IMG/VR virus record: IMGVR_UViG_2541047880_000004
Coordinates: 1-38,694 of that record
Origin: a virus
Taxonomy: Duplodnaviria; Heunggongvirae; Uroviricota; Caudoviricetes
DNA: 38,694 nucleotides
Direction: 5' to 3' (one strand)
Shown: positions 35,922 to 37,217 of the stretch, piece after piece
Numbering within the stretch: position 1 is the first letter of the stretch
How the letters are laid out: each line of letters starts with the position of its first letter
Translations under genes and position numbers: made by a program
Notes under the pieces: model-generated
What the model saw: the letters and a program-made list of their open reading frames with translations, nothing else
Told to the model about the DNA's origin: nothing
Databases searched by the model: none

Positions 35922-36061
35922 AATAGCGCGGGGCATCGTGCGCCACGCTCATTTGATTATTTATTGGGGATAATATCCTGAAGTGTGACGTTCATTTCTT
36001 TGTCTGTATTTTTGAGGTGATATATAATGTCGCCATTTTTAATAATGTGCAACACAAGCCA

Positions 36062-36220
36062 TTATCCATTTTTTTCACGTAAGTGAACAATACTGTTTTC
36101 TGATATGCCATACACTGTCATTTCTATGCCTTTTGTGTTGTGTGAACAATGAGTATGGCTGGAAATGAGACAAATGAATAGTGAGATAAAAAGCAACAGC
36201 TTATTTCTGTTGAGTTGCAT
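36062..36220 (-). CDS. Possible small exported protein in AT-rich island
   Basis: 52 aa from internal Met MQLNRNKLLLFISLFICLISSHTHC...; signal-peptide-like N-terminus. Confidence 0.3.
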   Translation of the reverse strand: MQLNRNKLLLFISLFICLISSHTHCSHNTKGIEMTVYGISENSIVHLREKNG

Positions 36221-36255
36221 AACGGCATCTGGCTTGAATTTCACCACCATCTTAG

Positions 36256-36294
36256 GTTATTATTACCGCCCCTATACTTAACTGTAATAATAAC
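36256..36294. repeat. 11-bp perfect inverted repeat upstream of the PerC-like gene
   Basis: GTTATTATTAC - 17 nt - GTAATAATAAC. Confidence 0.6.
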
Positions 36295-36347
36295 TATCTG
36301 ATAAACCTGATAGTTATTATTTAATATTTAGTGTGATAGGAGACTGT

Positions 36348-36647
36348 ATGGTTAAAGATAAAAAAGCTGAAGAACTTGAAAATAAAGGGCTTTGGCGCAG
36401 AGCTGCGGCTCGCTGGCAAGATGTGCTGATGGATTATCGTCAGGAGACTCAGACAGACCAGCGGATGTATATCCAGAGGCAAATTCAACGTTGCATTAAA
36501 TCGGCTACATTAAAAAATGTAAGTTCAAGAGAAGTCGCGACCTCAAGAGCATTACGCAATGCAGCAATACGCGTAGAGAAAGAAATGGGAATACATCGCA
36601 ATCGCAAGGTTGCACATGATGAACTATATACCTATCGGGAAAGGTAA
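36348..36647 (+). CDS. Possible PerC/Pch-family transcriptional activator
   Basis: 99 aa from Met MVKDKKAEELENKGLWRRAAARWQDVLM... with GGAGA RBS (ORF track starts 36333); resemblance to PerC N-terminus from memory. Confidence 0.45.
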   Translation: MVKDKKAEELENKGLWRRAAARWQDVLMDYRQETQTDQRMYIQRQIQRCIKSATLKNVSSREVATSRALRNAAIRVEKEMGIHRNRKVAHDELYTYRER

Positions 36648-36884
36648 ATTAAATAATGTGATAGCGTTAAGAAAATTTTTATAAATTGTTTATATGTGAC
36701 GGGTTAATAGGGGTATTACAGACATTCTTGATAAAACAATAAATATTTAAAAATCATTAACATAGCCTATCAAAAATATGCATGTTTTATTTCTGCATCG
36801 TAATAGTGTACAGGTATATGAATTCGCCCATGCTGATGGAGCTTACCGTGGTGGCTACACCTTGCAGCCAAAAGTGAATAAGAT

Positions 36885-37073
36885 ATGAGGATTCGCCTCA
36901 TTAATAACACCGGCAAGCAACCGGGGAATTATTTGAATTGCTCATTAGCAGAGTGTGGAGTTTCCGTATGGGATGAGTTCGATGTGATGCATAAAACTGT
37001 TTACGGCTATGTCGCAATACATAACGGAGAAGAGTTATTTATTCGTCGGTCAGAATGCGTGGGATTGATATAA
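36885..37073 (+). CDS. Hypothetical protein
   Basis: 62-aa ORF in AT-rich region. Confidence 0.35.
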   Translation: MRIRLINNTGKQPGNYLNCSLAECGVSVWDEFDVMHKTVYGYVAIHNGEELFIRRSECVGLI

Positions 37074-37217
37074 ACGAAGCATCCGCACTTCGGCGATAAA
37101 CCGGTAAAGGTATTCGCGATAAAGGTGAATATCGGCAATGAATAACAATCCTCGCACTCGCGGGGATTTCTTTTATCTGAACTCGCTACGGCGAGTTTTG
37201 TTTTATGGAGATGATAA

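Follow-up and report, generated by a model that had tools for sequence, protein, structure and literature searches.

A divergent PerC-family gene preceded by a three-arm repeat in an AT-rich cargo island of a P22-like Escherichia coli prophage

Introduction

The PerC and Pch proteins are master switches of attaching-and-effacing virulence. PerC is encoded on the pEAF plasmid of EPEC, as part of the perABC operon, while PchA, PchB and PchC come from the prophages Sp4, Sp11 and Sp14 of EHEC O157. Most members of the family are found on phages, satellites and plasmids.

Pch relieves the silencing exerted by H-NS, StpA and Hha; PchA, which binds numerous AT-rich loci, does so at LEE1 (PMC4764244). 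Activation of LEE is restricted to group-1 Pch proteins: LEE is hardly affected by pchD, and pchE represses curli (PMC6265319). PerC-like genes are also common in phage-inducible chromosomal islands (PICIs), where they adjoin int/alpA; those of EcCICFT073 and EcCIEDL933 leave LEE1 unaffected, and EcCIMP1_025 acts as its repressor (PMC11773190). Published members thus activate, spare or repress LEE, and outside the LEE-activating group the PerC family name does not predict function.

Here we describe a PerC-family gene located in a 38,694-nt stretch of DNA (the window), which corresponds to a P22-like (Lederbergvirus-type) E. coli prophage. The structural half of the window is ~96% identical to phages IME10, HZ41 and APC_JM3.2. 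Its plus-strand early-left operon begins at ~31.6 kb and extends as far as xis (a Pfam Exc gene, 37425-37643) and int (37621-38694). The right end of the window has a 99%-identical copy in an E. coli draft genome, where it adjoins torS. An earlier note on this DNA, made from the sequence alone, had singled out an AT-rich region close to xis and int as the possible site of a virulence regulator.

Results

An inserted AT-rich island precedes xis and int

The sharp fall in GC content claimed for this region is real: GC is 0.368 between 35923 and 36884, compared to 0.477 for the whole window. The 962-bp frame starting at 35951 is the GC minimum of the window, with equally low values in 0.3% of frames. 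In E. coli GN02050 the PPHyd/DUF551 gene is directly followed by a homolog of the 62-aa ORF that borders the region on its right, with nothing between them. Because these two genes adjoin in GN02050, we interpret 35923-36884 as an insertion between two conserved neighbors. Insertion between genes that are adjacent in a relative, together with a deviant GC content, identifies the segment as a cargo island ('moron') of ~960 bp, AT-rich, lodged between a DUF551-type gene and the 62-aa gene, at the far end of the early-left operon and just before xis and int.

From sequence comparisons, the island is a mosaic of three parts: a broken gene on the minus strand, a perC-like module and a relic of a doc gene. 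The module (36201..36894, plus strand), delimited with blastn, comprises the promoter region, a three-arm repeat, the gene and an AT-rich trailer, and shows 93.8% identity to ~92-kb P1-like phage-plasmid contigs (L001-L008 and L027). These contigs bear the hallmarks of P1, namely hot (DNA pol III theta), humD (peptidase S24), phd/doc, a cre-like integrase and the C1 repressor, and in them too the module comes after a DUF551 gene. When aligned, the P1-like loci are found to be devoid of 245 extra base pairs of the window (35964-36208). This extra segment is ~80% identical to the spacer between DUF551/ea22 and hokD in 19 complete E. coli genomes; in other prophages, the spacer between DUF551/ea22 genes and hokD encodes an intact 55-aa gene. 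The minus-strand part of the island is a nonsense-mutated copy of the small gene that adjoins hokD in other lambdoid prophages. At the opposite end of the island, the non-coding trailer (36648..36884; GC 0.31) contains a 75-bp relic (36788-36862) from the 3' portion of a doc gene, which encodes a Fic toxin, of the P1 type, with 78.7% DNA identity to doc of contig L007 (11046-11119) and a tblastn alignment of the relic peptide LFLHRNSVQVYE with Doc LFLRRNGIQVYD. This relic may be a leftover from a P1-like plasmid context.

A nonsense-broken gene on the minus strand

The minus-strand component (35957..36121) is a pseudogene of a conserved 55-56-aa prophage protein (MTVHGIS...TLQDI..). Its codon 20 (36062-36064) is an in-frame TAA where homologs have GAA, and it bears as well a 6-nt in-frame deletion. 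Six intact homologs, all lying between a DUF551/ea22 gene and hokD in other E. coli prophages, differ through in-frame indels only; the protein they encode is 55-56 aa long, starts with MTV(H/Y)GIS and reads MTVHGISENSTVHLREKNGEWL...TLQDI... The same TAA is present in three further IMG/VR copies (L024-L026) and GAA is found in another, L023, along with an in-frame 12-nt insertion, which makes the stop a genuine allele rather than an error of sequencing. The -10 box of this small gene is mutated too in the window (from TATACT to CATACT).

The earlier note had read this strand differently, as a small exported protein with a signal peptide. An ORF of 62 codons does exist there (36062..36250, minus strand), yet it is spurious: it joins the non-coding leader of the pseudogene to codons 1-19 of the pseudogene itself. 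The region 5' of the conserved ATG contains 17 gap columns among homologs, including 1- and 2-nt indels, and harbors a conserved AAGG ribosome-binding site and the TATACT box. The hydrophobic stretch falls in this frame-breaking sequence, upstream of the conserved ATG and its ribosome-binding site. Given these indels, the ribosome-binding site upstream of the ATG and the TAA at codon 20, the 'signal peptide' is not translated sequence and we rejected the exported protein. The genuine product (MTVHGIS...) has no hydrophobic segment and is cut short in the window by the TAA. No family matched the ORF at 36062-36250, and searches of Pfam, NCBIfam and PHROG with the small minus-strand protein gave nothing significant.

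Flanks of the island

Immediately to the left of the island is a 29-aa ORF (35832..35921, plus strand) that encodes a single hydrophobic helix (MSWPEALATVGVAIAVALVVFSIFRWGDK) and whose start codon shares nucleotides (ATGA) with the stop codon of the dATP/dGTP-pyrophosphohydrolase/DUF551 gene. Alignment shows it in locus L010 and in the P1-like loci; no significant match was obtained in Pfam, NCBIfam or PHROG searches. Between this ORF and the convergent minus-strand small gene there is an imperfect GC-rich hairpin followed by a T-rich tract (35925..35965). It is terminator-like and weak in the window copy (-13.4 kcal/mol, z -1.25) and was missed by the terminator scan, while L010 and the P1-like loci have a better-paired GCGGGG...CCCCGC version at the same site.

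To the right, the 62-aa ORF (36885-37073, plus strand) that the earlier note had counted as part of the island turned out to be a genuine conserved phage gene (phrog_10916, E 2.9e-36), although it lies outside the insertion. It has no homology to the 68-aa gene that comes after the module in the P1-like loci. Further downstream, two tandem hairpins resembling intrinsic terminators (37147..37198, plus strand), with stems of 9 and 8 pairs and a T run after each, are the first plus-strand candidates found by the terminator scan 3' of the perC-like gene, beyond the next gene. An Rfam scan of the whole window gave no family at threshold, and none of the PADLOC defence profiles matched the 55-aa ORF, the 62-aa ORF, the PerC-like protein or the intact form of the small protein.

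The only intact gene of the island encodes a divergent PerC-family protein

The sole intact gene of the island (36348..36647, plus strand) encodes a 99-aa protein and has a GGAG ribosome-binding site at 36339-36342, 5-8 nt upstream. The resemblance of this protein to PerC/Pch, for which a search with PF06069 had been suggested, held over nearly its full length: residues 1-88 match model positions 1-83 of 90 with 55.1 bits (cutoff 22.6; E 9.1e-15). The protein also matches phrog_994 (E 4e-29) and the PHROG transcriptional-activator families 10396, 1324 and 2608. It shows the family motif D.KAE.LE..G.(W/Y)RRA..RW, the central Cys and the C-terminal K.MG(I/L), and its length is within the range of the family (~90-105 aa). 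All 11 columns that are invariant in an alignment of 21 sequences (the window protein, 19 representatives and EPEC PerC) are present: D4, A7, L10, E11, R17, R18, A19, R22, W23, C49 and M80. Near-identical homologs already carry the annotation 'PerC family transcriptional regulator'.

Membership in the family is nevertheless not membership in its LEE-activating group. Global identity is 28% to EPEC PerC (from pMAR2) and 31% to PchA of Sakai, while PerC and PchA are 47% identical to each other; the span alignable by BLASTP is 27 residues with PerC and 82 with PchA. The protein is therefore not a close relative of PerC and PchA-C, and by sequence it falls in a separate, rare subclade, distinct from both EPEC PerC and EHEC PchA-C. 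An exhaustive search among 1.8 billion representative proteins gave 57 matches with E ≤1e-3 and none below 1e-30, a word-indexed protein search retrieved three clusters, and species-representative genomes contained no relative. The nearest relatives with a known context are, over their full length, a gene of p108_MLI108-3 (WP_042063021.1; 66%) and Orf51 of phi456 (57%). The module was found in none of 5,426 complete E. coli genomes, many EHEC and EPEC among them, and in no GenBank phage; its carriers are only drafts, metagenomes and five IMG/VR contigs, the carrier assemblies including GCA_048154545.1, GCA_047654415.1, GCA_015087215.1 and GCA_026231215.1. We thus regard this gene as a known kind of prophage cargo encoding a new, divergent member of the PerC/Pch family.

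The AF2 model of the protein (pLDDT 77) has five helices and matches only generic TPR-like helical hairpins, with no recognizable DNA-binding fold, and a profile search of PDB sequences with the protein gave nothing significant.

These data bear on the proposal that the gene is a lysogenic-conversion regulator that activates LEE1/ler, or another host virulence locus, in the way PerC and PchA-C do. The protein is a true member of the family with every invariant residue in place, it travels as AT-rich prophage cargo with the features of horizontal acquisition, and its closest plasmid homolog, that of p108_MLI108-3, is followed by genes for a MarR regulator and for an adhesin of the intimin/invasin type (an inverse autotransporter), a hint of a link to adhesins. 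Yet its identity to the proteins with that activity is far below the one they share, placing it outside the LEE-activating group, and the members described outside this group (pchD, pchE and the genes of EcCIEDL933 and EcCICFT073) do not activate LEE, or even repress it, as EcCIMP1_025 does (PMC6265319, PMC11773190). The absence of the allele from complete genomes rich in EHEC and EPEC also speaks against it. The step that the earlier note took from family name to virulence is hence not justified; we consider activation of a virulence locus improbable, and a role specific to LEE unlikely. Family membership supports instead the more modest description of a small modulator of transcription on AT-rich, silenced DNA, and the most likely reading of our analysis is a Pch-type modulator of H-NS-silenced promoters.

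A three-arm repeat upstream of the gene

The perfect 11-bp inverted repeat announced ~50 bp upstream of the gene is indeed there, 53 bp before the ATG (GTTATTATTAC/GTAATAATAAC, 36256-36266 and 36284-36294), and proved to be part of a larger structure. This is an AT-only repeat of three arms in forward, reverse and forward orientation (36256..36321): arm 1 GTTATTATTAC (36256-36266), arm 2 GTAATAATAACTATC (36284-36298) and arm 3 GATAGTTATTATT (36309-36321). Arms 2 and 3 form a perfect 13-bp repeat (36286-36298 and 36309-36321) with a 10-nt loop, which overlaps the 11-bp one. Among 1000 dinucleotide-preserving shuffles of the region 35940-37100, with loops of 3-40 nt allowed, 1.3% contained a perfect repeat of 11 bp or longer and 0.2% contained one of 13 bp or longer. 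The arm 2/3 hairpin folds with -12.3 kcal/mol (z -6.3), with 2 G-C pairs among 13.

Conservation singles out the same hairpin. It is invariant in 13 of 13 other copies examined (L001-L008, four of them aligned, and L023-L027), while its flanks vary. Arm 1 is less constant, with a G-to-A change in the P1-like copies and in L023, and a spacing between arms 1 and 2 of 17 or 18 nt. The repeat is absent 5' of the more distant perC-like genes of L013, phi456, the p108 plasmid and pMAR2 (perC), and its motif (a 9-mer core) has no second occurrence within the window. From length, stability and invariance, the three-arm repeat is real and probably functional, working either at the RNA level as a hairpin or as a site bound by a protein.

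Several specific roles for the repeat were considered. An intrinsic terminator at arms 2/3 was rejected since the stem is not GC-rich (2 of 13 pairs are G-C) and the terminator scan made no call. A match to the IHF consensus in arm 2, where TATCAGATAGTTA fits WATCARNNNNTTR, is not above chance, with 5 matches in the window vs 4 expected. A Fur box, assessed by eye only, agreed at 11 of 19 positions at most. For a thermosensor leader, little temperature dependence is predicted: the unpaired probability of AGGAG is 0.25 at 25 °C and only 0.36 at 42 °C. Control by the prophage repressor is unlikely, because the motif has no other occurrence in the phage, its immunity region included.

A candidate promoter and the origin of the transcript

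A sigma-70-like promoter candidate, TTGAAT-18 nt-TATTAT (36234..36263, plus strand), matches 9 of the 12 consensus positions and has its -10 inside arm 1. Regarding a promoter and a terminator of the cassette's own, then, we have this consensus-level match in a region where promoter-like sites are not above chance (5 found vs 5.3 expected), and the weak hairpin upstream. The start of the transcript could matter: if it lies at or before 36270, the hairpin could be extended by pairing of CCUAU with AUAGG of the Shine-Dalgarno (z -3.3), an occlusion that is gone with a start at 36272.

Putting these elements together, we lean towards a mosaic moron of a P22-like prophage in which one working PerC-family gene would be expressed from its own weak promoter under control of the repeat and would act as Pch does, on targets that are not necessarily LEE. 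Transcription would start from the sigma-70 candidate at 36234-36263; the repeat, lying across the -10 and the leader, may control expression, acting either in the 5' UTR as a stable hairpin or as a site bound by a protein; and the PerC-family protein would bind AT-rich, H-NS-coated promoters, loosening their silencing in the manner of Pch. Its targets need not include LEE. Counting against this proposal are the 28-31% identity to the studied proteins, the divergent effects of family members on LEE, the helical model without a DNA-binding fold, the consensus-level nature of the promoter and the lack of the repeat 5' of more distant homologs.

One could suspect, given the state of the island, that the perC-like gene is a silent hitch-hiker in decaying DNA and the repeat a by-product of AT-rich sequence. 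Both neighbors of the gene within the island are degraded, one by a nonsense mutation and the other to a doc relic, even the -10 box of the small gene is mutated, and the element is rare. The ORF is, however, intact in every copy found, at 92-100% amino-acid identity across P22-like and P1-like elements, the 13-bp hairpin is invariant amid varying flanks, and a repeat of this length is seldom produced by the shuffles. Conservation of the gene in two unrelated temperate elements, next to decayed neighbors, argues for function and selection, and makes the hitch-hiking scenario very improbable.

A selected gene could also serve the element rather than the host, as a portable counter-silencer or regulator, either by keeping AT-rich genes of the phage or phage-plasmid expressed or by tuning excision, induction or superinfection. 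The same module is found in a P22-like prophage and in P1-like phage-plasmids, in each case within a lambdoid early accessory block, and the gene of the window adjoins xis/int much as PerC-like genes of PICIs adjoin int/alpA (PMC11773190). On the other hand, the module is missing from most phage relatives and from most P1-like plasmids, and is hence dispensable; moreover, no target site was identified in the window, the repeat motif being unique to the gene's own promoter. We therefore judge a service to the element possible but unlikely, if less so than hitch-hiking or virulence activation, and retain a Pch-like action on silenced promoters as the preferred reading.

A bolder extension of this reading, which we put forward as doubtful, is that the protein itself recognizes the repeat, or that the repeat switches expression, and that the subclade constitutes a self-contained, portable counter-silencing cassette, exchanged by temperate phages and phage-plasmids to release AT-rich genes, of the host or of these elements themselves, from H-NS. 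If true, this would provide the first defined cis element for the PerC family and a role beyond LEE.

Discussion

A rare PerC subclade travels in the form of a compact module that is exchanged between P1-like phage-plasmids and a P22-like prophage, with the gene and its structured leader conserved amid decaying cargo, which argues for selection on the gene. No current view is changed by this, and the gene is a convenient candidate for asking what PerC proteins do outside LEE.

Compared to known systems, the island resembles the morons of lambdoid and P22 phages in being inserted between genes that are adjacent in relatives, in deviating from the composition of the phage, and in having a candidate promoter with terminator-like hairpins before and after. 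It differs from them in that its promoter and terminators are only consensus-level or weak, and in being a patchwork with two gene relics instead of a clean promoter-gene-terminator unit.

As for the protein, it shares with PerC and PchA/B/C the PF06069 domain, the size of ~90-105 aa, the signature D-KAE-LE--G-(W/Y)RRAA-RW, the central Cys, the K-MG(I/L) and a place in AT-rich mobile cargo. The arrangement of the genes is different: perC is third in an operon while the gene of the window is single and has its own leader, and pchA is located near the lysis genes of Sp4 while the gene of the window is in the early-left region, by xis/int. Another parallel, drawn from published descriptions, is offered by O157 PchD and PchE and by the PICI-borne PerC-like genes: these members of the family are likewise divergent and lie close to int in prophages or satellites. 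Unlike the PICI genes, though, the one described here is carried not by a satellite but by a P22-like phage that is complete, as well as by P1-like phage-plasmids. Among the nearest relatives with a known context, phi456 is, like the carriers of the module, a P1-like phage (Punavirus) with a perC-family gene, yet the regions upstream of the phi456 and p108_MLI108-3 genes do not contain the three-arm repeat; and while the p108_MLI108-3 copy is followed by MarR and an inverse autotransporter, what comes after the gene described here is a doc relic and then a phage gene.

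Origin of the perC-like module

In its trailer, the perC-like module retains 75 bp of a P1-type doc (Fic) toxin gene, a relic at 36788-36862 in the window that matches doc at 11046-11119 in L007, one of the ~92-kb P1-like phage-plasmid contigs bearing the same module (L001-L008). In P1-like phage-plasmids this relic coexists with an intact phd-doc pair ~2.5 kb downstream. The presence of the doc relic both in the module trailer and in P1-like phage-plasmids with intact phd-doc suggests that a P1-like context was the birthplace of the module. These contigs also contain, at positions 1-7728, a long early accessory block of lambdoid or P22 type (ea22, DUF4752, DUF968, PAPS reductase, and DUF551), adjoined by hot, humD, and phd-doc. 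We take this block as evidence that genes have passed between lambdoid phages and P1-like elements.

Flanks of the island and prophage integration site

At the left flank, an unannotated plus-strand ORF of 29 aa (35832-35921) starts at an ATG that overlaps the DUF551 stop codon (ATGA). Its translation contains one hydrophobic helix, and it is kept in the comparison locus L010 and in the P1-like loci. The small membrane protein of the neighbourhood is likely this ORF, and not the minus-strand ORF that the earlier note had taken for an exported protein. Farther upstream, in the early region, lies another AT-rich stretch (30300-31050; GC 0.36-0.39).

The small minus-strand gene is intact in L023, one of its IMG/VR copies, where a GAA codon stands in place of the TAA found at 36062-36064 in the window. 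The TAA allele is common to the window and three other copies, while a change in the -10 box from TATACT to CATACT is found in the window only. Relative to window positions 36008-36009, the L023 gene is longer by 12 nt of TCTGTA-like repeats inserted in frame (~3610-3640).

Terminators are unusually dense ahead of the excision and integration genes: two tandem terminator-like hairpins lie 3' of the 62-aa gene that forms the right flank of the island (37147-37198), and a third (37375-37394) is found where the 55-aa phrog_676 gene ends, directly upstream of xis. In an E. coli draft genome (L009, 2949-5444), torS lies directly next to the corresponding xis/int end of the prophage, which indicates integration in the torS region.

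Neighbours of the closest perC-like homologs

The closest perC-like homologs are found on plasmid p108_MLI108-3 (L015, 3001-6309; 66% identity) and in L013 (734-1717; 60% identity), each followed by a MarR-family regulator gene. Further downstream, the plasmid also has a gene for an inverse-autotransporter adhesin (intimin/invasin-type), and this arrangement may constitute a regulator-adhesin cassette.
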